63,910 bases of DNA, filler included, from Craspedostauros australis (GCA_030167865.1; 17 parts of 17 records of this genome joined end to end with filler, not necessarily neighbours in it); one strand, 5' to 3'. Positions 1,989-53,063 are shown, counted from the first letter of the whole stretch. Notes: generated from the sequence alone by a model not told the origin. A program made the numbers and translations.

Positions 1989-3870
1989 CAAGAAGTGATA
2001 CAGCGTCATGCCCCAACAAATCGAGCGATCGCCAACTGTTATGGATCCGTTGCACTGCTCTGAAACCATTGTCGCCAGCAACGATCATTGATAGATGGTG
2101 GCAACATCTTGAAACGGCCTCATGGTCATTGCTGCATGTGAACATTGGATTCAANTACAGGTGTTGGTGTGTTTGAAGTCGCCGACACGACACACGCGGT
2201 CCAGCGCGCAGAAAATGAATGGAGATTGGCGCCAACCGACACGACAAAAAATTTCGAATCACGAGCCGGGAGCACCAACTTCAACGGCACACAAGGGGCT
2301 GACGAACAACACACAGCAGGCAACCACCACACCACCGCAACCAGAAGAGACTCGCGATTCCATCAATGCCACGAACAGGTCCAACAGACGAAACAAAGTG
2401 CCAACTGGGGATGGAAGAGGCTTGCGCGCCTGTTTTGAACGGGTTCCGAAAAATGTTTTGTACCAGGGCCCAGTAGAATTGTACGTATAGCCCCTGTGTA
2501 GCCCCTGCGTTTCCCACCGTTTTTATTCGCGGTCGGTTTGGGGAAAACCTCCAAAATGGGGTCAACACAAGCGATAAAATGGAATCCAAGCGATCAACAC
2601 ACAGCAAGTNNNNNNNNNNNNNNNNNNNNNNNNNNNNNNNNNNNNNNNNNNNNNNNNNNAACATCATCAGATAGATCTCACTCTTGGCTTTCGATTGATA
2701 CCATTATTATACATTGTTGTTGGTGATAAGGGTTGGTTGTTTTGATCCGGGAAACTTGTAGCCCCATGTGGCCAATTGTAGCCCCTTTGCGCCCCTTTTC
2801 GGCAAAAAAGCGGATAGGCAGTAGTAGACTGAAAAAGATAGAAGAACTATTGTAGGAGAACTGATGCAGTGCCATGGGGGAACTGTTCAAGTACTTATTT
2901 GTTCACGAAGCGCTCTGAAATTGACTCCAACGAGCAACTTTTCCCGATTTCAAGACCAGCCAGACCCGTGTCGCATCTCTGTCTTCGTGGGCGGCTGAAA
3001 TCGGGAAGTGGTTCCTTGCGAGAATTCTCTAATGTGAGATATCCTGAGACTGAGTTTGTTAATGTTTGCAGAAACAAATCACAGTTGTCAAGTCTTCATC
3101 AAGTTGCCTGTCTCCGCTCTTCGGTCCCGCGTTCGCAAGCATCAGTCCGTCTTCTCTGCTCGACTCGCTCAACTCGAACACGGGCTGCACACAGCATGAA
3201 GGATTCGACAGAACAAAGATGGGACGGGATATGCCCAAGTGCGAAGGACCAAAGTTCCGGCTTTGCCCCAAGTTCAAGGCCAAGTTGTGAGGAACACGAC
3301 ACTCTCACCGGTTACCTGGGTTTCCCACCGCATGTGGCCACGGATGGTGGCAACCAATCATGTCGTTCTTCTCCCTTCGTTGTCAGCGTTTGCAGCACCA
3401 CCTCAGAAGGAACGTATCATCGCGCTAATTATTGAATTGTCGCAGGACGACTACATGACCACCCAATTCGAGCGTCGTCTTGTTCGAATGTCCCTTTCGT
3501 GCAGACAGGTCGTGCTCTGCGAACTATTGTATGCGCGAGGCGCGTGGCTGTTAGTCTTGATTTCCGTGTATGCACACATCGTCCGCTTGATGTGGGGTCG
3601 CCAGGGCAACAAGGAAAGGATTTGACCATGGCGAAATGAACGAACACCAAGCCAATACCTCACGACCAGGCTGTCAAGCACAAGGGGCTCCACAATGGCG
3701 CAGGCCTCCAAACGTCCGCAACAGACACACACATACACATGCACACACAAAGTGCAGCGCTTCTGCAGCCAGAACGACCAGCATCACCGACAATACCAGC
3801 ACACGCTCGCGATACGAACAGCGACCCATACCTGTATCTGTTCCTTTCACAATCGAAAGCAAGAAAGACG

Positions 3871-6800
3871 ATGGCAGCAATCACACCCTCCCCACACGAT
3901 AGCAGGAAGCACGATGATGGCACCACGGCATCTGGCACCGCTGGCTCCGACGGCTCGTGTTGCTTTTCTGTTTCTGCCGACAGCAATACCAATAGACAGT
4001 CGGAACCAAGTGGAGACGGCATGCGCTCTTCGTCCATCCTTCGATCGTCCAGCTTCTCCAGGTCGCCATCCCTGCCATCTACAGACTTCAGCATCGGGAG
4101 CGGTACTGGCAGCCATCATTTTGATAGCGAACTATCCGACCAGGTCTCCATCAGCAACAGACTATCCTCAAGTCGACACAGAGACTCGAACGAACTCGCG
4201 CAACGGCAACCAGTGCTTGCGACAGAGACCAACCGCATGCGTACAGCCAGAAAGCTAGCGGAACTCTCCCAGAGCTCTCTCGACTTCTCGCGCGTCAGTC
4301 TCATCGGACGAGAAAAGGAGAAGCGCGTCCTTGACCATCTATTCCAACAGATCCTCAAGAAGCCAACGTCCGCAGTCTCGGCACCATCTTCATCAGACGA
4401 AGACAATTGCATGACTTCGAATGATGATGAAAGCAACACAAGCTATGCGAGCTATGCGACCAACTCAGACAATCAAAACGCTCTCGGCCAACATGCAAAA
4501 ACGCAGCCAACGACCATCCGATCTCTCGTGACCATCTCCGGATACTCGGGCACTGGAAAATCGGCCCTGGCCAACACACTGCGACCAAAGTGCAAGGCGA
4601 GCAATGTCTTCTTCGTGTCCGGAAAGTTCGATCTCAAGCAGATGGATGAACCGTACTCCGGTTTCCGAATCGCGATGGCCGATCTGTGCTCGCAGATCTG
4701 CGCTCTTCCAAGAAGCCATCCCGGCACGATGCAGTCTGTAGGACAGGATACCCGAACCTTGGATGTGATCAGGCAGCGCATCATGGACAGTCTCAATACC
4801 GACGAGCTGCAATCGCTCAACAAGCTCATTCCCAACCTAGCCGATGTCGTCGGTATCGAGGCACTATCATACAATAATACATCAGCGGCGGAGGCCAGAA
4901 GCGACGACGCAAGCAGCGCACTGTTCACGCACGCACACACCCATTCCACAGAAGGCTTCAAGGAGCAGTCCATTCGACTCAAGTTCGCCTTCCGACGATT
5001 CATCAAGATCATCTGCAGTTGCTGTCCCCTCGTATGGATATCCGACGATGTCCAATGGGCAGACAAGGAATCACTCAACATGATCGAGTCGTGGATGCTG
5101 GACACCACCATCTCCTCTCTCATGGTCGTCATCTGCTTCCGATCCAACCTCGTCAACATGGACGGAATCGACAATGGGAATGCAAGCAATGCTGAAGGCA
5201 ATGTCAGGAATACTATTGGCATCAGCAACAAGCGCCCTTCGGACTTGGACTCTGTGGCCACATCGAGCACAACCGATCTGGTTGGCCAGATGCTGTCATC
5301 CATCCGGAAGAAGAAACGGGACCGCTTCATTCGGTACGTCAATCTCGAGGTAAACAACCTCTCATTGGACAACGTGCACACCATGCTCAAACAGCTACTG
5401 GGGATCTACAGCAACGACGGTGATGACCGCAATAGCAACAGCTACGGACTGGCAGAGATCGTGTTCAAGAAGACGGATGGAAACGTCTTCTTCGTCCAGC
5501 AGTTCATCCGGATGCTCGTCAAGGACACCCTGCTGTCATACGACATCGCATCGATGAAGTGGGTGTGGGACAACGATCAGATCAAGCAAGAGACTCCGGC
5601 AACCATCAACGTGGTGGAGTTGATGGAGCTGAAGCTGCAGCAGATCGATACGGCGCAGTACCTGCTGCCGCTGGCCGCGTGTTTAGGATCCACGTTTTCG
5701 TGGTTGCTGTTGCGAACGGCGCTGGCGGGCTTCGCGGAGGACGATGAGATGAATGAGGATGGGCATCGTGCATTGTACGAGTCGTTGTTTGGTGGACCAC
5801 CACCGGCAAGCGAAGATGAATGGTTGGATATTCTGAAGGTGTACGAAGAGGAGGGACTCATTGAGGCTCATACTGGTAGCAGTACAGCCATGGCAGCCCC
5901 ATCACCTGCTGCGTCCGAATACTCCTTCATCCACGACAAGGTGCAGGAAGCAGCACTTGGAATGATCCCATCGAAGATGCACCTTCTCGAGCTGCAGCAT
6001 CGCATCGGGATCATCTTGATGGATCGGTTGTCTCTGGATGACTTCGAGTCATCTGTGTTCGTGGTGGCGAATCTTCTCAATAGTCGCTTGGACATGGTCC
6101 CGCAGTACCCATCGTCATGGCTGTCATCAAGCCTGCCGCCGCCATCACCACCATCGCCAAAACTAACGCCAACGAAGGATATCGACATCACACAAACACG
6201 ACGCTTCCGAGTTGCACAGCTCAACTTCGATGCTGGAATCAAGGCCGCATCCCATGCAGCCTTCCGGGCAGCATATACCCATCTGCAAAACGCCATCGAC
6301 ATGATGCCACCAGACCACTGGCAATCGCACTACGATATGAGCGTCGAACTATTTACATCAGCCGCAGAGTGCGCTTATGTGAGCAACAGGTTTGAGAAGA
6401 TGAAGAAGTACGGCAATGCGGTGGTCGAGCGCGACGACTGTCCGCTGATCGACAAGATGAGAGCGTATCACGTGCTGATAAATGGAGAACTGGCTTCGGC
6501 CGATCATGGCAAAGCGAGTGATGTGATGAAGCTGGGTGTAGAGGTGATGGCCAAGCTTGGTTACCACTATCCCAAGAACAACACGATGAGACTAGTGATG
6601 ACCATATGGCGAATGATGAAACTGCAAGTATCCGCAAAGAAGTGGACGATCGAGTATTTGAACTCGATGCAGCCATCTGAAGATCCTATGGACGGGCTTA
6701 CCATGAGGACCTTGGGTAAGTGCTTGGTGGGTGCTATACTTGCCGATGGAGTTCTCTACCCTTTGGTCCTGGTGGACCTCATCAACTATGGTTTGACGAA

Positions 6801-7917
6801 AGGCACAACAAACTCCACTGCGTATGCCATCGCAAATCTTGCGGCGGCCATCGGTCCTGTTTTGGGGAACATGGAAGCTGGGAAGCTGTATGCCAACTAC
6901 GCCATGCATTTGTGCGAAGCAAACAGCAGCAAGGCAGAATCAGTCCGTCCCACACTTGCTGCGTACGGCTTTGTGCTGACCAACTTCATACCGTACGAGA
7001 GTTGCGCACAACCACTCCTGGATGCACATCTCGACGGCATGGCGACAGGAGATATTCAAAACGCGATGTGGGTCCTAATCTATTACTTGGACCTGTGCTT
7101 CTTCACAGCGAAGCCGTTGGGAGATCTGGAGTTGGATCTTTCGACATACACGAATCAATGTGAAGACTTCAATCAAACCAGGGTGCGTGAGTTCCTTGCA
7201 AGCAGATGGCAAATGGTGTTGCATCTCAGAGGATGGTCCGATCAACGGACCCTCCTCGTCGGTGAGGTCTTCGATGAAATCACTGTGATGCGACGCCTTG
7301 CACAAGCGAAGGATGAGGCACAAACCATTGACCTGCTTGACATCAAGCTGTTCACAGCGACATACTTCGGTGACTACGACGATGCTGTCAAGACAGCCTT
7401 CGAGGCGTATGAGCATGTCAATGAGAATACGAAGTACTACATCTCGAGCATGTCATTCTTTTTCTTTTCCTCCTTCGCCGCGACGATCAGCGTCCACCAA
7501 AATGGCCATCTCTCATGGTCAAAGCGCAACAAGGTCAAACGGCTGGCCCAACGATCGCGAAAGGCGCTGCGCGCCATGGTGAACAAGGGCAACCCAAATG
7601 CGGTGCACTGTTTTGCCATTCTGAGCGCGGAAAGAACTGCATGGAAGGCGCACAAGAGCAAGCAGAGAGACGACGCGTTCCATGCTGCAGTCAAGCTCTA
7701 TCGGGATGCGATCCGGACCGCTGCTCGAGGAGGGTTCTCTCAGAACCAAGCACTCGCAAACGAACGGCTGGCGGAGCACATGGTGCTGGAGGATGACATG
7801 GAGGGCGCGGGGTATCATTTCGATGAGGCTATTCGACTGTACGAGGAATGGGGCGCCGACAAGAAGGTGTCGTTACTGCGGGAGCGTCGCAAGAGCGTCG
7901 GCGTGACTGATAGATGA
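3871..7917 (+). CDS. STAND/AAA_16 P-loop NTPase (COG3899-like) with a long TPR-like helical C-terminus
   Basis: Uninterrupted 1392-codon ORF from 3739; the ATG at 3871 is a plausible alternative start. Motifs: LIGREKE, Walker A GYSGTGKS, GKFD, Walker B LVWISDDVQWAD, TDGNVFFVQQF, YSFIHDKVQEAA and a C-terminal ALANER..YEEWGA..KV. Confidence 0.9.
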   Translation: MAAITPSPHDSRKHDDGTTASGTAGSDGSCCFSVSADSNTNRQSEPSGDGMRSSSILRSSSFSRSPSLPSTDFSIGSGTGSHHFDSELSDQVSISNRLSSSRHRDSNELAQRQPVLATETNRMRTARKLAELSQSSLDFSRVSLIGREKEKRVLDHLFQQILKKPTSAVSAPSSSDEDNCMTSNDDESNTSYASYATNSDNQNALGQHAKTQPTTIRSLVTISGYSGTGKSALANTLRPKCKASNVFFVSGKFDLKQMDEPYSGFRIAMADLCSQICALPRSHPGTMQSVGQDTRTLDVIRQRIMDSLNTDELQSLNKLIPNLADVVGIEALSYNNTSAAEARSDDASSALFTHAHTHSTEGFKEQSIRLKFAFRRFIKIICSCCPLVWISDDVQWADKESLNMIESWMLDTTISSLMVVICFRSNLVNMDGIDNGNASNAEGNVRNTIGISNKRPSDLDSVATSSTTDLVGQMLSSIRKKKRDRFIRYVNLEVNNLSLDNVHTMLKQLLGIYSNDGDDRNSNSYGLAEIVFKKTDGNVFFVQQFIRMLVKDTLLSYDIASMKWVWDNDQIKQETPATINVVELMELKLQQIDTAQYLLPLAACLGSTFSWLLLRTALAGFAEDDEMNEDGHRALYESLFGGPPPASEDEWLDILKVYEEEGLIEAHTGSSTAMAAPSPAASEYSFIHDKVQEAALGMIPSKMHLLELQHRIGIILMDRLSLDDFESSVFVVANLLNSRLDMVPQYPSSWLSSSLPPPSPPSPKLTPTKDIDITQTRRFRVAQLNFDAGIKAASHAAFRAAYTHLQNAIDMMPPDHWQSHYDMSVELFTSAAECAYVSNRFEKMKKYGNAVVERDDCPLIDKMRAYHVLINGELASADHGKASDVMKLGVEVMAKLGYHYPKNNTMRLVMTIWRMMKLQVSAKKWTIEYLNSMQPSEDPMDGLTMRTLGKCLVGAILADGVLYPLVLVDLINYGLTKGTTNSTAYAIANLAAAIGPVLGNMEAGKLYANYAMHLCEANSSKAESVRPTLAAYGFVLTNFIPYESCAQPLLDAHLDGMATGDIQNAMWVLIYYLDLCFFTAKPLGDLELDLSTYTNQCEDFNQTRVREFLASRWQMVLHLRGWSDQRTLLVGEVFDEITVMRRLAQAKDEAQTIDLLDIKLFTATYFGDYDDAVKTAFEAYEHVNENTKYYISSMSFFFFSSFAATISVHQNGHLSWSKRNKVKRLAQRSRKALRAMVNKGNPNAVHCFAILSAERTAWKAHKSKQRDDAFHAAVKLYRDAIRTAARGGFSQNQALANERLAEHMVLEDDMEGAGYHFDEAIRLYEEWGADKKVSLLRERRKSVGVTDR

Positions 7918-13475: not shown

Positions 13476-16127
13476 ATGCCGAGTGTTACGAACCAACAAC
13501 TCATTAATGCTGTCAAGGCAGGTGACTTGTGGGTGTTGAAGGAATGGAAGAAGCAGAACAAGACGCAGAATGAAGGAGATGGTGTCAACTTCAAAACCAA
13601 CGATGACTACACTCCCCTTCATCACGCATGTGACAACGGCCACCTGGAGTGTGTCAAGTACCTCATCGAATCATGTGAGGCGAACATCAACTGCAAAAAC
13701 AACAAAGACAACACTCCTCTTCATCTGGCATGCTCCAACGGCCACCTGGAGTGTGTCAAGTACCTCATCGAATCATGTGAGGCTGACATCAACTGCAAAA
13801 ACAACGATGGCAACACTCCTCTTCATCTGGCATGCTCCAACGGCCACCTGGAGTGTGTGAAGTACCTCATCGAATCATGTGAGGCGGACATCAACTGCAA
13901 AGACAACGATGGTTTTGCTCCCCTTCATCATGCATGCTACAACAGCCACCTGGAGTGTGCCAAGTACCTCATCGAATCATGTGAGGCGGACATCAACTGC
14001 AAAAACAACGATGGTGAGACTCCCCTTCATCATGCATGCTACGACGGGCACCTGGAGTGTGTCAAGTACCTCATCGAATCATGTGAGGCGAACACCAACT
14101 GCAAAGACAACGATGGTTGCACTCCCCTTCATCAGGCATGCTACAACGGCCACCTGGAGTGTGTCAAGTACCTCATCGAATCATGTGAGGCAGACATCAA
14201 CTGCAAAGACAACAATGGTTCCACTACCCTTCATCACGCATGCTACAACGGCCACCTGGAGTGTGTCAAGTACCTCATCGAATCATGTGAGGCGGACATC
14301 AATTGCAAAGACAACAATGGTTGGACTCCCCTCCATTCGACATGCTCCAACGGCCACCTGGAGTGTGTCAAGTACCTCATCAAATCATGTGAGGCGAACA
14401 TCAACTGCAAAGACAACGATGGCGACATTCCCCTTCATCTGGCATGCTACAACGGCCAGCTGGAGTGTGTCAAGTACCTCATCGAATCATGTGAGGCGGA
14501 CATCAACTGCAAAAACAACAATGGCAACATTCCCCTTCATCTGGCATGCTGGAACGGCCACCTGGAGTGTGTCAAGTACCTCATCGAATCATGCAAGCCT
14601 GACATCAACTGCAAAAACAACGATGGCGACATTCCCCTTCATCACGCATGCTACAACGGGCACCTGGAGTGTGTCAAGTATCTCATCGAATCATGTGAGG
14701 CCAACATCAACTGCAAAACCAACGATGGCAACATTCCCCTTCATTTGGCATGCAACAACGGCCAGCTGGAGTGTGTGAAGTACCTCATCGAATCATGTGA
14801 GGCGGACATCAACTGCAAAAACAACAATGGTTCCACTCCCCTTCATCTGGCATGCTGCAACGGCCAGCTGGAGTGTGTTGCGTACCTCGTTGCATCAGCC
14901 AATGCCGATACCGATATTCAAAACAACAACGACAAAACCCCCCTCAATTTGATCGATGCAAAACTTCAAATGAAGATGATAAACCGCCTCTATCATCTGA
15001 GTTACTGCAACCCACAGCTGCAGCAGGAGTTGAAAGAGAATGAGCAGGAGAATGAACAACTGAAACAGCAGTTGAAATGGAAGGAGGAAGAGAAGAAACA
15101 GAAGGAGGAAGAGAATGAACAACTGAAACAGCAGTTGGAACAACAGTTGAAACAGGAGAAGGAAGAAATGCAACACATGCTCTCGAAAAGTCAACAGGAG
15201 AACAAACAACTGAAACAACAGCTGAAACAACATCTCAAGATCAGCATCGACCAAAATCGTCACGCTGCTTTTCGTACCGAGGCCATCGCAGACATTACCT
15301 TCCTGTGTGGACAAGGGGACGAACAACAATCAATCAAAGCAAACTCCGGAGTCCTCAGGGTCACTGTTCCATCCATTCAGACACTGATCAACAAAGGAAT
15401 CCAACATCAGCACACGAATGATGACACCGAAGACGGCGCGGTCCCCATCGAAACAACCATCCCTCTCCCCAACCTTCAACCAAAACACGTCCGATATGTC
15501 CTCCAATGCATCTACACCGGTGAGATATCCTTCGATGACAGCGCTCATAATGACAACGCTGCTGCTCACGTCAGCGCTCACATCGACGCTCACTCCAACT
15601 CACACCACGATACAAATGCCTCTCACCAGCCAACTCCCACCCTCACTGGACAGGACGATCTGCAACAGCTCATCCTTGTGGCCAACGAGTTCGGCTTCTG
15701 GCGACTCAAGCTTGTTCTTGAAGCAGAGTTGACCCGCAAGCATCTCACAGAGGACAGCATGATAGATGTGTTGATATTCGCCGATCAACACAACTGTGTG
15801 GTGTTGAAGGATGCAGCAATGAGAATGGCAGCTGAAAATGAGAACAAATTGTTCAGTCATCCGGATTCCAAGCAGCTATTTCATCACCCTCACCTAATGG
15901 GAGTCATTCATGACCTCTGCCATGGTAGAATGGAGAGTGACGGACTTGATGATGAGTACAGTGGCATGTCCATGATGGAGCTGTACAAGGTCATAGATGA
16001 GGACAAGGGTACAGAACAAGTGGATTCATACATGGATTGGGCAACATTGGTGGACTTCGTCCGCTCTCTGAGTACCAAATCATCCATAGTGGTTGAGACG
16101 GACAGTGCTGCTGCAGAAGAGGAGTGA
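13476..16127 (+). CDS. Ankyrin-repeat + coiled-coil + BTB/POZ domain protein (putative Cullin3 substrate adaptor)
   Basis: Likely ATG at 13476 (MPSVTNQQL). 13 ANK repeats of the form TPLHxACxNGHLECVKYLIESCEADINCK, a Q/E/K coiled coil at about 15015-15240, then BTB-like ADITFLCG..IKANSGVL..VLQCIYTG..LILVANEFG..LKLVLEAEL..VLIFADQHNCVVLKDAAM. Confidence 0.9.
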   Translation: MPSVTNQQLINAVKAGDLWVLKEWKKQNKTQNEGDGVNFKTNDDYTPLHHACDNGHLECVKYLIESCEANINCKNNKDNTPLHLACSNGHLECVKYLIESCEADINCKNNDGNTPLHLACSNGHLECVKYLIESCEADINCKDNDGFAPLHHACYNSHLECAKYLIESCEADINCKNNDGETPLHHACYDGHLECVKYLIESCEANTNCKDNDGCTPLHQACYNGHLECVKYLIESCEADINCKDNNGSTTLHHACYNGHLECVKYLIESCEADINCKDNNGWTPLHSTCSNGHLECVKYLIKSCEANINCKDNDGDIPLHLACYNGQLECVKYLIESCEADINCKNNNGNIPLHLACWNGHLECVKYLIESCKPDINCKNNDGDIPLHHACYNGHLECVKYLIESCEANINCKTNDGNIPLHLACNNGQLECVKYLIESCEADINCKNNNGSTPLHLACCNGQLECVAYLVASANADTDIQNNNDKTPLNLIDAKLQMKMINRLYHLSYCNPQLQQELKENEQENEQLKQQLKWKEEEKKQKEEENEQLKQQLEQQLKQEKEEMQHMLSKSQQENKQLKQQLKQHLKISIDQNRHAAFRTEAIADITFLCGQGDEQQSIKANSGVLRVTVPSIQTLINKGIQHQHTNDDTEDGAVPIETTIPLPNLQPKHVRYVLQCIYTGEISFDDSAHNDNAAAHVSAHIDAHSNSHHDTNASHQPTPTLTGQDDLQQLILVANEFGFWRLKLVLEAELTRKHLTEDSMIDVLIFADQHNCVVLKDAAMRMAAENENKLFSHPDSKQLFHHPHLMGVIHDLCHGRMESDGLDDEYSGMSMMELYKVIDEDKGTEQVDSYMDWATLVDFVRSLSTKSSIVVETDSAAAEEE
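13611..14936 (+). repeat. 13 x 102-bp coding tandem repeat (ankyrin array with high internal conservation)
   Basis: Exact 102-nt period. Framework codons are nearly identical in units 1-12; unit 13 diverges in its second half. Confidence 0.95.
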
Positions 16128-16585
16128 AGTGTCAGACCATTTCATACCATGCCATACCGTACCAGAAATCTTCCACAAGTGAACGCCTNNNNNNNNNNNN
16201 NNNNNNNNNNNNNNNNNNNNNNNNNNNNNNNNNNNNNNNNNNNNNNNNNNNNNNNNNNNNNNNNNNNNNNNNNNNNNNNNNNNNNNNNNNNNNNNNNNNN
16301 NNNNNNNNNNNNNNNNNNNNNNNNNNNNNNNNNNNGTATCGTTCACAGCGCGGTCTGGCTGGGCCGCGAGATACGCATGATCTTCTGTGAATGAATTGCA
16401 GATGATCCCGGTTGGCGTATGGCACGCTGCTGTGCATCATCATTTGCCAATGCGACATGATGAAGATGGTCCAGCCACCGCTGTCATCGTCGTGGTCGTC
16501 ATTGCCGATCATCTGGTTTCCGCATTTGTTTGTTTCGTTGGTGTGGAAGGAGGTGCGTGGAAAACGATGGTAGACCCCGCTGGCG

Positions 16586-28008: not shown

Positions 28009-29866
28009 TGCACACACGGACGGCAAGCCAATCATCTTCCGTGGAGACAACAGCGGAGAGAACAAGGCATCCGAGGTCCATCTGCTCGAAGCCGGATTCG
28101 ACGTCACATTCGAATACACGGCATCCAACACACCACAGCAGAACGGCAGAGTGGAGCGCAAGTTTGCATACTTGTACACGAAGATGCGATCCATGCTGAA
28201 CGGCGCCCAGCTCAACGAAGAGCACAGACATGGGCTATGGGCTGCAGCAGCCAACGTCGCGACCGCGGTCGCCAACATCACCGTGGCGAAGGGACAGACC
28301 AAGTCGCCACACCATCTATTCTTCGGAGAGGATCCGAAGTATGCAAGCGGACTACGTACCTTCGGCGAAGTCGGAGTCGTCAAGACGGCCTATGGAGGCA
28401 TGACGGCGAAACTCCAGAACAGAGGCGAGGCGATGTTGTTCGTCAGATATGCTCCACAGCATGGATCCGGCGTCTACAACATGTACCGTCCATCCACCAA
28501 GTCCATCGTTTGCACCAGAGACGTGAAATGGCTCAACAGATCGTACGGGCACTTCAAGGGTTGGACCTACGGCACGGACGATGGGAAGCCGGAAGGGAGT
28601 CAGATCGTCGCAACCGATGCCGAGCACCCAACGGAGACCGACGATGACAGATTCATCCTGGTCGGAAGGGAAGGGACAGCGCCGTCCCACACAGCTCGAA
28701 CCAAGCCAAAGCGACGCTCTGTATCATTCGCCGACGCGAATTCCTACCACGTCCTCTCAGACGACGACGATGAGGACGATGACGACACCAACAACAACGC
28801 GAGTGCGAAGAAGGACTCACCAGGTCTCGCGAGCGAGACGACGACCACACCAGTGGACNNNNNNNNNNNNNNNNNNNNNNNNNNNNNNNNNNNNNNNNNN
28901 NNNNNNNNCGACGACGACACAGTGAGCGACATCGAACATGTTGCCCCACCGAGTGTCCCGCCAAGCATCCTCCGCACTCCGCCAACATCACGTAAGCGTT
29001 CGCACGAGGCGAACAACGATCCAAAAATTAGTCGCACCACGACTGCTGATCCCCCAAAACGACCAAGCAAGCGCGATACCGCTCGCAGCGAGCGACAACA
29101 GCGATACATCGAGCGAAGCAAGCATCAAGCAAAAACGAATGCGAAGTCGCGTGCGTCGCTGCCATCCAACGTGAAAGGAAAGAGCGAATTGCGCAATCTT
29201 GCGAACTACAACAAGCCAGGAAAGAAAGAGAAGCATGAAGGCAAACGGTTCACAACCAACCTATCCGTCTTCAATAGGGGAAGCGACACCGACGACGACA
29301 AGAGCAACACAGACCACGATCAGGACAGCAGCGAGGAGACCAACGACGATGACGAAATCAATGACGACACCACCGACGAGAATGAGGAGAACGACGAAGC
29401 TACGGACGACGAAGACAGCGACTCCCCTCCATCGGACATCACCAACGCAGTTACGGATGCTCTATTCGGTAACAACGCAATCAGCACCGACGATGTCGAG
29501 ACAGAGATCTGCGCAACCACCCAAGATGAGACAGGAGAGACACCGACACACATCGAGCCATCAACCTTCGACCAAGCATTCAACCATCCGAATGCAACAC
29601 ACCGGAAGGGCTACAGAGCTGCCATCGCAAAGGAGTTNNGTTCGATGGATGCTCGATCCGTCTACAGCAAGATCAAGCGCTCATCGATTCCAAGAGACCG
29701 CAGATGCTGCAAGTGCAAATGGGTGTTTAAATTAAAGCGCAATGGAACCTATCGAGCGCGTCTGGTGGCTTGCGGCTACTCACAGATTGCAGGAGTGGAC
29801 TACCAAGAGCACCACTCGCCTGTCATCCACGACGTCACGTACCGTGTGATGATGGTGATCATGATG
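28009..29866 (+). mobile_element. pol: Ty1/copia pol fragment: integrase C-terminal part, spacer and start of reverse transcriptase
   Basis: RGDNSGEN..FEYTASNTPQQNGRVERKF (integrase), LRTFGE, then EPSTFDQAFNHP..CKWVFKLKRNGTYRARLVACGYSQIAGVDY (RT). The IN-before-RT order is Copia. Confidence 0.93.
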
Positions 29867-29966
29867 NNNNNNNNNNNNNNNNNNNNNNNNNNNNNNNNNN
29901 NNNNNNNNNNTTAATTAATTAANNNNNNNNNNNNNNNNNNNNNNNNNNNNNNNNNNNNNNNNNNNN

Positions 29967-35606: not shown

Positions 35607-38600
35607 GTGCACAGAGCGATGCTCGGAAGAGGAAGACGGCACCAAACCGGAGCTGCAATCCACACCATGAGCACGCAGGTAGCCAGAGTTCTGGCAAACG
35701 AGGAGGAAGCAAGCAGACTAAACGATGCTTGCGGCGACGGGATGGAGTCGAAGACCAACGACGAAGTCAGGGTGGTGTTCCAGAACGTGGCACAGATCTC
35801 CATATACGCTTATCAACAAAAGAACGAGGAAATCATGGCCTTCATACAGCGATCAAGACTCGATGTGCTGGCGATGGCTGAAACAAACCTGAGATGGAAT
35901 CATGTGAGACCCAGCGATCAGTGGGAAGAAAGGGTGTGAGGGAAGGTGAAACGGACCAAGCATATGTTCTCGTATAACACCCATGAGCAGGGTCGCGACC
36001 CAAGACTATACGGAGGAACAGGAATTGTGCTAACGGAACAGACGGCCGCGAGGGCGTTTCTTTTTGGAGTGGATGACAGCGGCATGGGGAAATGGTCTTG
36101 GTGCAAGATCGAAGGCAAGAGACACAAGTCAGTGAGAGTGGTGTCGGCATACAGGCCGTGCAAATCCATGGATGGAGACACCACAGTGTGGAACCAGCAG
36201 CTGCGAGCATTGAACAACCAGGGAAGGCACGAAGACCCACACAAAGCCTGGATTACAGACCTACAAGACCAAGTGAGGAGATGGAAGGAGGACAGGGACT
36301 CGATAGTGATTGGTGTCGACCTTAACGAAGATACTGAGCACGGACCAACAGTACAGGCTCTACGAGCGGTGGGACTGAAGAATTCGGTAACCGACCGCAT
36401 GGGGGACGACGCGCGGTGTTCTACACAACAGCGAAACCTGACCAACACGCCCATTGATGCAATTTATGTGTCGGACGGACTCGAAGTGATACGGGCAGGC
36501 TACACGGCGTTTGGGGAGGCCATCCCGTGTGATCATCGAGCTATCTGGATCAACCTCAGCTTCAGCCAGATTTTGGGAGCCGGGGTGCAACGAGTACAAT
36601 CCGCCCAGCCCAGAAGGTTAGTCCTCAGTAACCCAAAGGTGGTACAAAAATACAACGACGCGGTACTCGCAGAGTACGGAAAGCACCGCATTCACCAGAG
36701 GGCCACGACTCTTCTTAAAACAGCGAAGACACAAGGATGGGNNNNNNNNNNNNNNNNNNNNNNNNNNNAACAGCGAAGACACAAGGATGGGAACTCAATG
36801 GGTCCCAGCGGAAGGCTTATGATGGCCTGCTAACCCAGGTGTACCAAATCCGGCGATGTGCGGAGAAGAGGAGTAGGAAGTTGACTATGGGGGAAGTCTC
36901 ATGGTCCCCGGAAGTGCAGAGCGCTCGGGATCGGGTGAAGTACTGGACTATCGAAGTCAAGTATTGGAAAGGGGTAAAAACCAGCTTGTCATTGAGAAAG
37001 CGCTTGAGGGCCCAATCAGGATGTGAGGCGGCAGGATCACTGGAGGAGGCGACATCCGCACAGACGGAAGCGTACAAGGCCTACTACAGAGTTCGGAAAC
37101 AGCACCGACAGGCCCGGCAAGACCATCTAGTGGATTTAGCCAGGCAACGGCACGAAAGTCACGAACAGGACTATGAGACGGCCATCAAAACGCTCATGAA
37201 CCAGGAACGACAGCGAGAACAGGCGAGCAGACTCCGAGCAGTGTTTGGGAAAGGGAAAGCGATGACTACCAAGGTTCTCTTCATGGACGAGGAAGGAGTC
37301 GTTCACGAATGTACGGAACAATGTGACATAGTGGAAGCGTGTATCGTGGAGAACAAGCGAAGGTTCTCGCAGGCACGCGACACCCTGTGTATGTCAGGCA
37401 GAGGGAAGCAAACGATGGACAAGATCTGGAATCCGGATACGGCGAATCAGCTGTTGTATGCTGCAGGNNNNNNNNNNNAGTTTGACGACCCACTGTGGCA
37501 GCATCTCATGCAGGCCCTGGAACCGGTGGAGTTCAGCCAAGACGAGCTCACGGTAGAAGAACATGTAAAGGCGTGGAGAAAGCAGACAGAGCTTACCAAC
37601 TCTGAGCCGAGCAATCCGCATTTCAGGCACTTCAAGTCTGCGGCGGCCGATGCCACCCTCGCGGAGGTGGACATGGTCATGCGTGAGATACCGTATCAAA
37701 CCGGTCACTCTCCAAAAGAATGGCAGCGAGTTACCNNNNNNNNNNNNNNNNNNNNNNNNNNNNNNNNNNNNNNNNNNNNNNNNNNACATCGAAAAAATGC
37801 GGACCATCCAGCTGATGGACGCGCAGTTTAATCTCAACAACAAGAGGTTGGGACGACAGATGATGGCCACGGCAGAAGAACGGCAATGGATTTCAGATTT
37901 CCAGTTTGGAAGCAGAAAGGGTCGATCGGCGGTCAGTGCGGCACTCAACAAGCGAGTGAGCATTGATGTTGGGAAACAAAAGAAGGTCCCTATCTGGTTC
38001 TGCTCGAATGATGCGAAATCATGCTACGATCGCATTGCCCCAAATTTCGCGGCGACTGTGATGATGGCGGCTGGGGTCAACCCCTCGGCTACAAGGTGCA
38101 TGGTCCGCACGCTCCGAGATGCAAGGCATCGCATCAGCACCGCGTTTGGGGTGTCCAGGCAATCCTATGGCAGTGGACCCGATTGCTGCATGCATGGAAT
38201 TGGACAAGGCAATGGAGCTGGGCCCGCGATTTGGGCGGTCATCAGTTTGGTTATGTTCAAGGCGATGGAGAGCAGAGGGCACAAACAGACGATGGCCTAC
38301 CCAAGTGGTGATGGCTCCTTTGATATCCTCGGGTCGGCCTTTGTTGATGACACTGACCTGATCTTGCTAGGAAGTGACGAAGTGACGTCGTCAGACTTCA
38401 CGGACATGGTCCGGGACTGGAGCGAGCTGCTGAAGATCACCGGGGGCGCTATCGTTCCGGCTAAGTCCACGTGGTGGTCGATGACTCCACAATTCGAAGA
38501 TGGACGGTGGAGGTGGAACGATGGGGACCTGAACGATAGGATTGCCATCGCCGATGGGGAAGGNNNNNNNNNNNNNNNNNNNNNNNNNNNNNNNNNNNNN

Positions 38601-40017
38601 NNNNNNNNNNNNNCCAGGCAATCCTATGGCAGTGGATCCAATTGCTGCATGCATGGAATTGGACAAGGCAATGGAGCTGGGCCCGCGATTTGGGCGGTCA
38701 TCAGTTCGGTTATGTTCAAGGCTATGGAGAGCAGAGGGCACAAACAGACGATGGCCTACCCAAGTGGTGATGGCTCCTTTGATATCCTTGGGTCGGCCTT
38801 TGTCGATGACACTGACCTGGTCTTGCTAGGAAGTGACGAAGTGACGTCGTCAGACTTCACGGACATGGTCCGGGACTGGAGCGAGCTGCTGAAGATCACC
38901 GGGGNNNNNNNNNNNNNNNNNNNNNNNNNNNNNNNNNNNNNNNNNNNNNNNNNNNNNNNNNNNNNNNNNNNNNNNNNNNNNNNNNNNNNNNNNNNCCATC
39001 GCCGATGGGGAAGGGGTGGGCAGTGAAATACCACGCCAGCCTCTAGATCAACCCCTATTCACGCTTGGGGTGTTCCTATCATTTGATGAGGGTGAGGAGC
39101 AACAGGTGCAAGCACTACGGAAGAAGGCAGAGGACTTTGCCGGAAAGATGCGACTCTCCAGTCTGTCTCCAGCGGACGCAAGATGTGCTCTTACCCTCCG
39201 GTTCATCAAGTCGATCGAATACGTTATGGGAATTACTCAGCTCACGGCAGCCCAATTGAGAAGAATCATGGCGCCAGCGCTGCTTGCAGCGTTGCCACAG
39301 ATGGGGTGCTCGAGGACGTTCCCATGGGATCTCGTTTACGCTCCCGTCTCGCTCGGAGGATTAGGGGTGCCTAACCCGGTCCACCGGCAGTTGATACAAC
39401 AGATACAACTTGCGTTCAGTGAAGTACACGGAGACACATCGACGGGTAGGATGCTACGGTGTTCGATTCAAGCGGTCAAGGCAGAGCCGGGAGTGGGAGG
39501 TTCACTGTTCGAGTACACGCTCGAGAGGGTGCACCATTGTGTGACACCCTGCTGGGTGAAAGGTTTGTGGCGACAGCTACAAGACACAGGGGTGAATATC
39601 ATAGAGACCACAAAGTCTCTCGAGCTTCAGCGGGACGGGGATGAGTTCCTTCTGTCCCGATGGGTCCGAGACGGCTTGAAGGGGGCCGAACTGTATCACT
39701 TGAATATGTGCAGGATGAAGCTGGGGGTAGCTAGGATGTCGGATATTGTGGACGCGGCTGGTTCGTCACTGTCAATCGTCATCATGGAAGGGCAAGGGGC
39801 CCCAGCTCAAGTCAGCCAGTGGGCCAACNNNNNNNNNNNNNNNNNNNNNNNNNNNNNNNNNNNNNNNNNNNNNNNNNNNNNNNNNNNNNNNNNNNNNNNN
39901 CGATTGCTTCTGACAACCCTAGGGAGATGGCACTCGAGCGACGGAACGTGGCAGTGGTGGAAGTCAGCGATGACCGGTGAAATCTACGACACAAGCACCC
40001 GTCCGATACGAGTGTAC
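35607..40017 (+). mobile_element. Non-LTR retrotransposon ORF2 (APE endonuclease + RT), Ambal-like; one premature stop plus gaps
   Basis: APE motifs FQNV, AMAETNL, GGTG, VVSAYRP, GVDLNE, IDAIY and CDHRAIW. RT motifs QFGSRKG, NDAKSCYDRI, GIGQGNGAGP and AFVDDTD. In-frame TGA at 35937. Confidence 0.9.
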
Positions 40018-46089: not shown

Positions 46090-46926
46090 ATGAACGAAGA
46101 TGGTAATCCTGACGACAACGGCACCTCCGTTCCCGAAGTCACCCTGGAAGATCTCGAGACTGCAGCGAAAGGTGGGGATCTGCGAACTGTCCAACGATGG
46201 AAGCAGCAGAATCCAACACGCAATGATGCCTGGGCCAAGCACAAGGACGGTGAGACCCTTCTACGCGATGCATGCAACAATGGGCATCTGGATCTTGTCA
46301 AATACTTGCTTGATGACTTCATACCGAACGTGGAGGATGATGGCAATATGGTGCGCGGTGCACTGTGGTATGCTTGCAAAGGAGGTCAACTCGACATTGC
46401 GAAGTACTTGATCGAATCGCGCGGAGTTGATGTGAACGCTCAAAATGAATGGGGTGAGTCTGCTCTTCATCTCGCATGCTGCAGAAATAGCACACGCATC
46501 GTGAAGTTCTTGGTAGAGTCACTTGGTGCGGACGTTCGCATTGAAGACCAATACGGTTACCTTCCCATTCACAGTGCATACTGGCGTAAGTCGGAGGATG
46601 TCATGAAATACTTCATGGAGTCACACGGCATGGATGGTAATGTTCAAAACAAGAACGGTGACACTTTCGTCCATTTGGCATTCAAGAATACTGATGGTGC
46701 CTGTACCGAGGAGGTGAAGCGTCTGATCGAATCATGCGAGCTGGATTTCGGCGTCAAGAACAACGATGGCAAGACTCCAGTTGAGTATCTCAACGAGGGT
46801 TTGTATACTCGTGAGTTCACTGTCAAAGACTGGCCATTTTACTACGAAGAAATGCGCGAGTTTGCCGTCATCTTCTACAACGGATTGATCAGGCAGAGGG
46901 AGAAGGATCGGGAACAGCAAAAATAG
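46090..46926 (+). CDS. Ankyrin-repeat protein, divergent paralog of 13476-16127, truncated before the BTB domain
   Basis: About 5 degenerate ANK repeats (ACNNGHLDLVKYL, ACKGGQLDIAKYLIES, GESALHLAC). The N-cap VTLEDLETAAKGGDLRTVQRWKQQN resembles VTNQQLINAVKAGDLWVLKEWKKQN. Confidence 0.85.
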   Translation: MNEDGNPDDNGTSVPEVTLEDLETAAKGGDLRTVQRWKQQNPTRNDAWAKHKDGETLLRDACNNGHLDLVKYLLDDFIPNVEDDGNMVRGALWYACKGGQLDIAKYLIESRGVDVNAQNEWGESALHLACCRNSTRIVKFLVESLGADVRIEDQYGYLPIHSAYWRKSEDVMKYFMESHGMDGNVQNKNGDTFVHLAFKNTDGACTEEVKRLIESCELDFGVKNNDGKTPVEYLNEGLYTREFTVKDWPFYYEEMREFAVIFYNGLIRQREKDREQQK

Positions 46927-47930
46927 ACCTTGACCCGATATCCCTGTGAAGAAGCTCCCAAACAACCAAATACCAGCGCCGGCACAAGCGACCAGGACAA
47001 CCCCCAAGAATCCAGCGACGAGGTCATAACTGGCGCCACCTTGTTTGGATCCGGCGACGCACTGCAAGCGATCAAGGCAAAGAGCGTCGTCATTCATCCA
47101 ATTCGGTGAGCTCAAGGTGGCGATTGAAGAAGAGCTTGGAGACAAAGTGGATGGAGCCTGTGTGATCTTAACATAAAGAAGAATTGAATTATTTTCATGA
47201 CGACTTGTCTGTCCCATCCGCGAATGTCACAAGCGAAGATTCGTGGACGCGAAATCAGGCTTGGCTCTCGCTGTCGGTGCCATGAACAACTTTCGTCCTC
47301 GAGGTGGTTGTGCTTCTTGCTCGTGAACGGACGGTGGAAATTGCAGCGCACTTGTTATCGTCGATGCGAATATCGATGTCGCCTGCGTGCTTGGTGGCTG
47401 CGCCTTGCGTTTGTTTGGCATCTCCTTGGGTGGAGCATGTATGGTTGTGCTTGAGTCGGTGGTCTTCTTTTCCACTGCTGTTGAGTTGAACGCCAACAGT
47501 GCTCAGCTTGGGGTGGTTGAACAGGTCATCACCCGATCCGATCCGATCCGATCCCAGTCTCACTCATGAGGAGCAACATCCTATATGCTGAAGAGCACTG
47601 GCGTAGCCTTGTCTGGAAAGGCAAGGCAAGGCCAGATCCAATTCACCCATTTCGTTTCCAGTATCCACTCCTCCCGTTGTTGCAGAATCGGAGGCCATGA
47701 GGAACCGATACTCCTTTTTGACGTTGCATCGGCGAAGAATGGTGAACAATAGTGTTCTGATCAAGAGGGAGACCCCTCTGCTTCACAAGAGCCAGGACGG
47801 AGCAACTCGAGATGCAGCAATCGTCAGCGGNNNNNNNNNNNNNNNNNNNNNNNNNNNNNNNNNNNNNNNNNNNNTTAATTAATTAANNNNNNNNNNNNNN
47901 NNNNNNNNNNNNNNNNNNNNNNNNNNNNNN

Positions 47931-51410: not shown

Positions 51411-52963
51411 GATCATGCAAATCCTCAGCACGGTGAGCAACGAATACAGAACTCACATCGTGAACTTCCAACACCAACTCACGTTCAATCCGGATCTGGT
51501 TACCATCAACACGATCAGAGGAGTACTCCGCGCTGCATACGCCACGCACAGAGGAGGCAAAGCATATGTCGACGACTTCCAAGACAGTAACACGAAGAGC
51601 AACGACACCGGCTTCACAAGTACCGGTAACTTCAAGGGTACTTGCCACAACTGTGGCGTGTATGGCCATAGATCCGCCGATTGCCCAGAACGCAAGAAAT
51701 CGAATAACAAGAAAAACAACAACAACAACAACAACAAGATGAACGGAAANCGCAACAAGGGAAGCGGCTTCAAGGGCAAGTGCAACTACTGCGGCATCTT
51801 CGGACACCGCGAGGCGGAGTGCCGAAAGAAGAAGTTCAACGAGAAGAAGGCCGACGAGCAGGCCAACACAGCCACGGAAGGACACGACAAGAGCGGACAC
51901 GAGATGGTACTCTCGGCAAAGGACATGCCGCTCTGCATGTTGGTGTCCGACGACTACATCGAAGACTCCTTCTTCGATAACTTCGAGTACGTCGGGAGTG
52001 ACGACGAAGTGCAGGGTGATGAGATCATCCCGGAGTGGCTCAGCGAGGAGCCAATCATCCACGAGGTGGATCCAAGACGCGAAGTGAGCTACGAATGCTG
52101 CTTCAACGCGCACGACCTGATCGGTTCATACGGCGACGAAGCTGAGATGGACGAAGAGGCCAACGATAGCGACATCGAAGAGGCCATGAGCGATGACGAC
52201 GACGACGCTGACGAGGACGGCGGAGATGAAGACGACGAAACGAACGGCGGCGCGGCGCCGCCTCCTCCAGCGGCGGGGAACAACAGATCGGGCATCTTCG
52301 ACGAAGATGACAGCGACGAATCCGAAGACGGCAATCATCCAGACGACAGTTTTAATCCGAACGAGCGCGTCGTCTATCCAAGAGACATCGACTTCCCACC
52401 GATTGAGAATCCCAACCAGTCCAACTACCTCCATCGTCATGACACCGTCCCATATGCAACAGAAACAGCATTGGTGATCCAGAAGCAACTCATCTTCCAT
52501 GCCGTAATGGAAGCAGGAACGAACCTCTTCCCAGGGCATGTCCAAGGAGTGCTCAGACCGATATGGGTGAACATGATGGGATCAATCCTATCCGAGAACT
52601 TCAAATCGATCGAAGAGATTCTCGCCAATTCGGTTGTGATCAATCGCATACTGGAAGCAGCCGAGACAGAGACGATCCCAGAGACGGATCTTCATTACAT
52701 CCTTGGAGGATGTATGCGNNNNNNNNNNNNNNNNNNNNNNNNNNNNNNNNNNNNNNNNNNNNNNNNNNNNNNNNNNNNNNNNNNNNNNATTCCATCGGAC
52801 TACGCGCAACTACCCGACGACATGGATGACGGAGACCATCATCATCCATACAACGAAGATGGAGTCCACGAAGACGACAACGACGGCAGCTTCAACGACG
52901 AGATAGCTGCGGCAGCTGTGGAGCAACTCCACGAGCTGAGCACCAAGTACAAGGACAAGGTCA
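51411..52963 (+). mobile_element. gag: Ty1/copia gag with two CCHC zinc knuckles
   Basis: FKGTCHNCGVYGHRSADC and FKGKCNYCGIFGHREAEC, followed by a long acidic linker. Confidence 0.85.
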
Positions 52964-53063
52964 NNNNNNNNNNNNNNNNNNNNNNNNNNNNNNNNNNNNN
53001 NNNNNNNTTAATTAATTAANNNNNNNNNNNNNNNNNNNNNNNNNNNNNNNNNNNNNNNNNNNN

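Follow-up and report, generated by a model that had tools for sequence, protein, structure and literature searches.

An ankyrin array with variable groove codons joined to an SPOP-type BTB module: a putative Cullin-3 adaptor in the diatom Craspedostauros australis

MATH-BTB proteins are described as adaptors of Cullin-3 (Cul3) (PMC4091423, PMC6883508). In nematodes they form large families that are positively selected in the substrate-binding and not in the cullin-binding domain, a pattern that has been read as immune surveillance (PMC4334554, citing Thomas 2006). In fungi, the HiC repeats of NLR proteins (HET-E/D, Pa_3_8560) are near-identical apart from a few hypervariable, positively selected positions on the concave ankyrin face, and concerted evolution together with repeat shuffling has been proposed as the cause (PMC4986451). 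Natural ankyrin repeats are most entropic at positions 2, 3, 5, 10 and 13, which lie in beta-turn 1 and helix 1 and together make up an unbroken surface for binding, according to the paper on the designed ANK-N5C library (PMC4308713). Here we describe a gene at 13476..16127 on the plus strand of a 63,910-nucleotide (nt) stretch of DNA from the diatom Craspedostauros australis (GCA_030167865.1; 17 parts of 17 records of the genome joined end to end with filler, not necessarily neighbours in it), which is called the window throughout. An earlier note, made from the sequence alone, had proposed that this gene joins a hypervariable ankyrin array to a BTB domain. The gene consists of 883 codons plus a stop in an uninterrupted, intron-free open reading frame (ORF), and belongs, as an intact copy, to an ANK-BTB family that is specific to diatoms.

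SPOP, the plant BPM proteins and the nematode MATH-BTB adaptors have the same BTB + 3-box/BACK fold as the C-terminal half of the diatom protein, and the same order of parts, with the recognition domain N-terminal to the BTB. The diatom gene differs from these adaptors in having an array of 13–14 ankyrin units instead of the MATH domain, in adding a probable inter-domain coiled coil and two disordered inserts within the BTB, and in carrying diversity between repeats within one gene, not solely between paralogues. The HiC ankyrin, TPR and WD repeats of fungal NLRs are likewise units of 33–34 amino acids (aa), and the likeness that the earlier note had seen to this pattern, conserved repeats with a few variable contact positions, holds (PMC4986451). 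In contrast to the fungal proteins, the effector end here is a BTB and the host is a diatom; no NACHT, NB-ARC or other STAND NTPase was found in a Pfam scan of the 883-aa protein. Set beside the HiC criterion, under which 85% or more is required across 100 aa or more (PMC4986451), the units here are 77–80% identical in amino acids and 87–88% in nucleotides, values obtained by a measure other than that of the paper.

Designed ankyrins (DARPins and ANK-N5C) likewise stack a self-compatible, consensus-like unit and vary it at the beta-turn and helix 1. In DARPins the randomised positions are 2, 3, 5, 13, 14 and 33. Unit positions 7, 9, 14 and 17 of the diatom array correspond to library positions 3, 5, 10 and 13 (PMC4308713, PMC8683736). 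The diatom array differs from the designs in being natural, in having 13 units where designs have 2–5, in its 34-aa unit (the extra residue is in the loop past helix 2) with four Cys per unit, and in showing little or no variation at library positions 2, 14 and 33. The BTB + ankyrin combination itself also occurs in NPR1/BOP of plants and in ABTB1/ABTB2-BTBD11 of animals. In NPR1 the BTB is N-terminal to the ankyrin repeats, the reverse of the diatom order; in all of these proteins the repeats are few and divergent, and no sequence relationship to the diatom gene was detected beyond the folds.

In poxvirus ankyrin/F-box (PRANC) proteins the ankyrin array is likewise the recognition end of a cullin-RING ligase adaptor (PMC3185573); unlike the diatom gene, these are viral, have divergent repeats and use an F-box-like motif with Cullin-1. 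In the benthic pennate diatom Seminavis robusta, BTB/POZ families are expanded, are expressed with a bias to sexual reproduction and show raised amino-acid diversity (PMC7335047). The family of the present gene has many near-copies too, and the text of the S. robusta genome paper (PMC7335047) contains 0 occurrences of ankyrin and 0 of cullin. Full-text word searches of open-access papers listed none on an ankyrin-BTB family or on hypervariable ankyrin arrays in diatoms. The ingredients are known singly; the combination of a homogenised ankyrin array having hypervariable groove codons with an SPOP-type BTB, in a diatom, is absent from the papers that these searches returned.

The C-terminal module of the protein (295 aa, 15240..16124) is a genuine BTB + 3-box/BACK module of the SPOP (cullin-adaptor) type. 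The BTB and the 3-box/BACK helices span residues 589–825 (15240..15950, plus strand), as placed by Pfam, an AlphaFold model, Foldseek and VIA. Pfam BTB (PF00651) matched residues 599–692 at E 2.2e-6, its score of 28.3 bits exceeding the cut-off of 20.5. The AlphaFold model of the module, built with a 31-sequence alignment, had a predicted local distance difference test score (pLDDT) of 87.3 and a predicted TM score (pTM) of 0.82. Two stretches of the module were disordered, at about residues 56–71 and 100–137, with pLDDT values of 50–59 over 100–130. The top Foldseek matches of the model were SPOP chains (E 1.2e-7, probability 1.00, TM 0.82 normalised to 4j8z_B), followed by KEAP1, KLHL11, KBTBD2-CUL3, NPR1 and KLHL3/Cul3. 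VIA-align gave Z 15.2 against SPOP 184–356 with a root-mean-square deviation of 2.4 Å over 172 residues, the alignment extending to SPOP residue 365 and spanning BTB, 3-box and BACK. The other Z values were 13.3 for NPR1, 12.9 for KEAP1, 12.5 for vaccinia A55-Cul3, 11.4 for KLHL11-Cul3 and 11.2 for KLHL3/Cul3. A sequence search of the PDB with the module returned six SPOP sequences only (E 0.09–0.23), all in the alpha5-BACK region (SPOP 271–350). The C-terminal BTB fold claimed from the sequence was thereby confirmed by a Pfam match above cut-off, a confident model and a close structural match.

Among 1.84 billion proteins, the module found 113 representatives at E<=1e-3, 19 at E<=1e-10 and ten at E<=1e-30; one of these relatives carries the name of a BTB protein from the diatom Craspedostauros australis, and the relatives mark the organism as a diatom. 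When 18 relatives were scanned with Pfam, four had ankyrin repeats with a BTB and 11 had MATH, mostly together with BTB and often with BACK_BPM_SPOP, two of these 11 also having SAP. The others were two BTB + BACK proteins without MATH (one also with SAP) and an unrelated cadherin protein. No MATH domain was matched in the Pfam scan of the 883-aa protein, whose N-terminal domain is ankyrin. The family looks like a diatom branch of the MATH-BTB adaptors with ankyrin repeats in place of MATH.

A large number of near-copies of the module was seen in one public sequencing run (X1; Logan contigs, 30,610 in all, of a kind guessed to be RNA). No run known to be RNA was listed as containing the sequence. 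Run X1 contained 0.47 of the sampled words of 14880–16127, and 794 of its contigs matched 14808–16188 at >=85% identity. Of these, 104 were at least 99% alike, 223 were at 95–99%, 279 at 90–95% and 188 below 90%. An alternative letter was carried by 10–29 different contigs at many places; at 15671, C>G was found in 26 contigs and accounted for nearly all of the depth. The simplest reading is that tens of paralogues or alleles share the BTB module, the copy at 13476–16127 being a minor member. The hundreds of contigs that resemble the BTB half suggest a large family of paralogues.

The N-terminal part of the protein is dominated by 13 in-register ankyrin units of 102 bp (34 aa) at 13584..14909 (plus strand), with the consensus INCKNNDGNTPLHLACYNGHLECVKYLIESCEAD. 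Tandem Repeats Finder reported a single array at 13585–14878, with a period of 102, 12.7 copies, 89% matches, 0% indels and a score of 1923. A 44-nt framework pattern occurred 12 times at <=3 mismatches, compared to 0 in 100 shuffles. In the 883-aa protein, Pfam Ank (PF00023) matched 13 stretches (E 3.6e-137) and Ank_2 matched with E 4.2e-132, and the array matched 259 distinct PDB sequences at E<=1e-20, the top ones being NOMPC, ankyrin-1 and DARPins. A single-sequence AlphaFold model showed 13 regular helix pairs in a stack, at a mean pLDDT of only 65.6. The 102-bp ankyrin array that the earlier note described is thus real.

Mean pairwise identity was 86.6% in nucleotides and 77.4% in amino acids across all 13 units, and 88.4% and 80.4%, respectively, across the 11 inner units. 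That the units agree less well in amino acids than in nucleotides shows change to be concentrated in replacements. Each unit shared 25–33 of its 34 residues with the consensus, and the amino acid was invariant at 12 of the 34 codons. All units were unique, being 5–27 differences apart, and the longest exact repeat shared between them was 56 nt. The proportion of differing silent sites (pS) was 0.19 and the silent divergence (dS) about 0.2; the statement in the earlier note that the units are almost identical even at silent sites was therefore too strong.

Three codons stood out in every unit (k = 0 to 12, plus strand), namely 13608+102k (unit position 9), 13623+102k (position 14) and 13632+102k (position 17). 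Translation of 13476–16127 recovered exactly the residues that had been listed for them. The residue preceding TPLH (position 9) runs Y,N,N,F,E,C,S,W,D,N,D,N,S; that following PLH (position 14) runs H,L,L,H,H,Q,H,S,L,L,H,L,L; and that following AC (position 17) runs D,S,S,Y,Y,Y,Y,S,Y,W,Y,N,C. No other codon among the 34 varies as much, the entropies being 2.78, 1.61 and 2.14 bits and the mean pairwise differences 1.72, 1.49 and 1.04 nt per codon for 9, 14 and 17, respectively. They are not alone, however, as positions 5, 7, 10 and 34 are moderately variable, mainly by N/D and T/I toggles. The hypervariable residues are rich in Tyr, His, Asn, Ser, Asp and Leu, and by hand count 15 of the 39 are aromatic or His. 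The framework is also unusually rich in Cys, with four per unit (in INC, AC, LEC and SC) and ~50 across the array, and an H13-x2-C16-x3-H20-x2-C23 spacing is present in each unit; these features might bear on metal binding or redox chemistry. 'AC' and 'SC' are also found in relatives; 'INC' and 'LEC' are private to this gene.

Compared to its relatives, the array is unusually homogeneous. Ten relatives, including a second locus in the window at 46090–47106, had 3–7 ankyrin units with a mean pairwise identity of 0.21–0.57, against 13 units at 0.77 in the present gene. Two database searches with the ankyrin units, one among proteins of near length and one among shorter proteins, each scored the best 8000 word-sharing candidates and considered the best 120. 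No ankyrin array above 53% identity was present among the matches listed (best 53% for near-length and 49% for shorter proteins), and the homogeneous array therefore appears to be a recent, private expansion. Scans of metagenome contigs gave 70 stretches for a pattern from the single protein and 156 for one from the alignment, none of which was confirmed by tblastn. Two Craspedostauros-type relatives, P0002 and P0003, are 86% identical and one 34-aa unit apart, the unit at the junction being a hybrid of its neighbours. Judged from these two sequences, unequal crossing-over appears to occur in the ANK-BTB family.

Counted from the TPLH motif, the variable codons 9, 14 and 17 of the unit fall on positions 5, 10 and 13 of the ankyrin numbering. 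In the model of unit 1, helix 1 comprises residues 47–53; position 14 is in the middle of the helix, position 17 is at its end on the same face as 14 (i, i+3) and position 9 lies two residues ahead of it. The assignment of the variable codons to hairpin and inner-helix positions used in libraries was borne out, as all three belong to the ANK-N5C set of 2, 3, 5, 10 and 13 (PMC4308713). The variable codons are on the canonical ankyrin binding face; ordinary ankyrins tolerate change there too, which cuts both ways.

Selection was examined over the 13 units and 34 codons by Nei-Gojobori counting of replacement (dN) and silent (dS) divergence, and by a home-made codon likelihood (GY-type, F3x4) with branch lengths scaled from an IQ-TREE nucleotide tree. 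Two trees were used, one from all sites, which is conservative, and one from 27 framework codons only. The counting method gave dN/dS of 0.58 overall, 0.43 for the 31 codons outside the hypervariable three and 0.27 for the 27 framework codons. For the three hypervariable codons dN was 0.80, compared to 0.22 for the dS of the whole unit; their own dS was 0.53, on just 1.7 silent sites. On the all-sites tree M0 gave an omega of 0.54, and nine codons were significantly below neutrality; together with the dN/dS values, this shows that the framework codons are under purifying selection. On the same tree, site 9 had a beta of 4.7 (p 5.8e-4), which survives correction for 34 tests, and site 14 a beta of 5.2 (nominal p 5.8e-3). 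M2a was preferred to M1a with a likelihood-ratio statistic of 8.24 (p 0.016) and an omega of 2.9 for 16% of sites (positions 7, 9, 10, 14 and 17). With the framework-only tree the statistic rose to 24.8 (p 4e-6) and the p values were 1.4e-7 for site 9, 2.3e-6 for site 14 and 0.019 for site 17; this tree is nearly a star and is therefore biased in the opposite way. The positive selection that the earlier note had invoked was upheld in part, in that M2a was preferred on both trees and site 9 was robust, but site 14 was nominal, site 17 depended on the tree, and recombination violates the model. For the hairpin codon (9), diversifying selection, or selection against homogenisation, is more probable than its absence; for the two helix codons (14 and 17) it is plausible.

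Taken as a whole, the gene was read as a Cul3 adaptor whose ankyrin groove is the recognition end, with an array that grew by duplication and exchange, a framework that is held and three groove positions that are diversified; we give this reading slightly better than even odds (about 0.55). A Cul3 adaptor role is most likely for the C-terminal half because it is an SPOP/BPM-type BTB + 3-box/BACK module, and helices of the 3-box/BACK kind raise Cul3 affinity (PMC3616122). As the nearest relatives of the module are diatom ANK-BTB and MATH-BTB proteins, a putative role as the substrate-adaptor part of a Cullin-3 ubiquitin ligase is a reasonable inference from the sequence and the model. The ankyrin domain would then replace the MATH domain of the sister proteins. 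One 102-bp unit would have been expanded to 13–14, not very long ago, through tandem duplication, unequal crossing-over or gene conversion, and purifying selection would hold the stacking framework while selection would favour differing residues at the three groove positions of each unit. Amino-acid change is concentrated on the hairpin and the inner-helix face (most of all at ankyrin positions 5, 10 and 13, to a smaller degree at 1, 3 and 6), where it would outpace silent change. The product would be a long groove with a distinct residue triplet per unit, forming a composite and evolvable binding surface, and the partner or partners bound in this putative binding site would then be ubiquitinated.

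Several points weigh against this reading. On the side of selection, site 17 was not significant on the all-sites tree (beta 1.8, p 0.24), on which 9 was the sole site to pass Bonferroni correction. The four-gamete test was failed by 36 of 78 pairs of informative biallelic sites, and bootstrap supports were 24–81%. Either segments have therefore passed between units or the same changes have recurred, and none of the trees can be wholly correct; recombination inflates selection tests, whose assumption of a single tree is here violated. The tests were moreover simplified and home-made, with fixed relative branch lengths, on 13 sequences and 34 codons, and the variable positions were noticed first and tested post hoc. 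On the side of structure, the library-randomised unit positions 4, 6 and 18 hardly vary, if at all, in the array, and the ankyrin model is of middling confidence. For the C-terminal module, Pfam BACK_BPM_SPOP scored 17.2 bits, under its cut-off of 27.4. In known complexes a phi-x-E motif in the loop after helix alpha3 inserts into Cul3 (PMC3616122). The diatom sequence past the matching helix reads LINKG-I-Q-H-QHTNDDTED, with a loop of different length and an uncertain register, and at that register no Glu is found two residues beyond the Ile in the matching loop.

The strongest competitor, though an unlikely one, is a recent ~12-fold amplification of one ankyrin unit followed by neutral drift at tolerant surface positions, in an ordinary long-ankyrin scaffold or adaptor. 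As positions 5, 10 and 13 are among the most entropic in ordinary ankyrin repeats, relaxed constraint predicts the same map of variable sites (PMC4308713). A dS of about 0.2 implies time enough for drift, the selection tests are weak as well as post hoc, and on the all-sites tree sites 17, 5, 7 and 34 are not above neutrality, those at 5, 7 and 34 being N/D toggles. Drift does not readily account for codons 9 and 14, however, where replacement runs at 4- to 5-fold the silent rate even on the all-sites tree. Codon 9 alone has eight different codons in 13 units, which by hand count need at least eight nucleotide changes compared to ~2 expected from the minimum silent rate of the array (about 16 changes on about 20 silent sites). 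The preference for M2a over M1a on both trees also stands against it.

Rather improbable, in our judgement, is that the BTB module recruits no cullin and that the protein is an oligomeric ankyrin scaffold or regulator, with the array serving avidity or spacing; this would be compatible with either evolutionary reading of the repeats. Many BTB proteins merely self-associate or bind non-cullin partners. The lack of an evident Glu in the phi-x-E place and the BACK match under cut-off are in keeping with such a role, as are the two long disordered inserts in the BTB, the probable coiled coil ahead of it, and the strong structural match to NPR1, a BTB-ankyrin regulator. Yet SPOP is both the best structural match and the only PDB sequence match, with the 3-box/BACK helices included, the closest relatives without ankyrin repeats are MATH-BTB-BACK proteins, and the Ile in the phi place (that of 'SGI') is retained in most ANK-BTB relatives. 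A homodimer prediction of the BTB-BACK part (two copies of module residues 1–240, alignment unused) scored 0.01 against a mark of 0.32 and gives no evidence either way.

An assembly artefact, in which the units would be wrong in count, order or sequence and the hypervariability would mix units of several paralogues, is very unlikely: a run of N lies 62 bp beyond the stop codon and the many near-identical X1 contigs make paralogue mixing conceivable, but the frame is kept with no indels through 12.7 copies, the framework shows purifying selection, and the units can be placed by ordinary-length reads because the longest exact repeat between them is only 56 nt and every unit is unique.

The remaining parts of the gene flank the array and the BTB. 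Since the N-termini of relatives align from the Met at 13476 (MPSVTNQQLINAVKAGDL...), and on through to the C-terminus, this codon was taken as the start; a longer version of the ORF would begin at an in-frame ATG at 13389. Residues 1–36 (13476..13583, plus strand; MPSVTNQQLINAVKAGDLWVLKEW...) form an N-terminal helical cap with predicted helices at residues 6–14 and 18–28. The cap is also present in relatives P0001, P0007, P0008, P0009 and P0017 and in the second locus (46129). The 13 units are followed, in register, by a degenerate 14th unit or C-terminal cap at 14910..15011 (plus strand; TDIQNNNDKTPLNLIDAKLQ...), for which model confidence is low; a terminal '..N.QTPLD.A' unit of this kind is common to the relatives.

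Between the array and the BTB, a Q/E/K-rich linker of 76 aa occupies 15012..15239 (plus strand) and contains repeated NEQLKQQLK motifs. From its composition it is probably helical or a coiled coil; no Pfam family was found in it above noise level. In the relatives the linker at the matching place is S/P/Q-rich and unrelated. The NEQLKQQLK motifs are direct repeats, and some X1 contigs skip parts of the linker or return 120 bases, which suggests that its length may vary among copies.

Within the BTB, a His/Ala-rich, disordered insert of low complexity at 15537..15650 (plus strand; ...AAAHVSAHIDAHSNSHHDTNASH...) separates the 'CIYTGEISF' strand from the BTB helix that follows. None of the aligned relatives has so long an insert, and in five X1 contigs the part at 15548–15627 is replaced by 13–27 other letters, so that it looks like a length-variable loop. 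A location of this insert in the Cul3-contacting loop was considered and rejected, as it sits between a later strand and helix alpha5, outside the four contact regions listed in PMC3616122.

The C-terminal tail (15951..16124, plus strand; DEYSGMSMMELYKV...SYMDWATLVDFVRS) is conserved in the family and comprises two helices (module residues 245–254 and 267–294). The near-invariant residues of the family in this region are D238, M243, S244, D266, R267 and L270. The tail alone gave no Pfam match. A SAP domain in the tail was rejected, with no Pfam match even at E<=10 and only an analogy to distant relatives in its favour. The tail (...MSMMELYKV...SYMDWATLVDFVRS) occupies the place of the Pfam SAP call in the distant MATH-BTB relatives P0024 and P0037; P0023 has a SAP call too, located mid-protein.

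In the window, a run of 147 N at 16189–16335, an assembly gap, starts 62 bp past the stop codon, so that neither the 3' untranslated region nor the downstream neighbour is complete. The second family member, at 46090–47106 (plus strand), is apparently broken, with an in-frame stop after the ankyrin part. Its cap is 44% identical to that of the present gene over 34 aa, its ankyrin units are divergent and it is 41% identical to P0017; the BTB is reduced to the first strand (...LFGSGDALQAIKAKSVV...), where the similarity ends. Three retroelement remnants were recognised by Pfam, all on the plus strand: an RVT_2 with a retroviral SH3-like domain at 28184–29914, an RVT_1 at 37650–39026 and a CCHC zinc knuckle at 51415–53019. 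These ORFs sit between and beyond the two ANK-BTB family loci. A 1392-aa ORF at 3739–7917 (plus strand) has an AAA_16 P-loop NTPase match (E 1.7e-13) and a faint NPHP3_N (NACHT-like) match (E 0.089), and from these matches may encode a STAND-type NTPase; it shares the strand of the ANK-BTB gene and lies 5.5 kb upstream of it. No Pfam family was matched by several further long ORFs of the window.

The gene may encode a fast-evolving recognition protein. An immune or non-self role, as the earlier note had suggested, is speculation by analogy, following the arguments made for MATH-BTB and F-box proteins (PMC4334554) and for fungal NLR repeats (PMC4986451). A role in sexual reproduction would be an equally open alternative, since the BTB/POZ families of Seminavis robusta evolve fast and are biased to reproduction in their expression (PMC7335047). 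A wider proposal is that pennate diatoms have an intracellular surveillance or self/non-self system of Cul3 adaptors, made up of dozens of SPOP-type BTB paralogues, some with ankyrin arrays in which unequal recombination would homogenise and reshuffle the units and selection would diversify three groove residues in each. Specificities for viral, bacterial, transposon or mating-partner targets would in that case be gained rapidly, and the targets ubiquitinated; we regard this as a long shot. To our knowledge, no NLR-type repertoire has been described in pennate diatoms.

Fast evolution of the substrate-binding ends of cullin adaptors is documented for MATH-BTB and F-box families in nematodes and grasses, and near-identical repeats with a few hypervariable contact residues are generators of specificity in fungal NLRs. 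One diatom protein unites both ideas, in a group about whose means of recognition inside the cell very little has been learned. If the array is merely a recent amplification, it would be an ordinary lineage-specific repeat expansion. If the diversification is true and the array varies between strains, the gene would be a candidate for the recognition of viruses, bacteria or mates by diatoms, and its groove would be a natural counterpart to the designed ankyrin binders.

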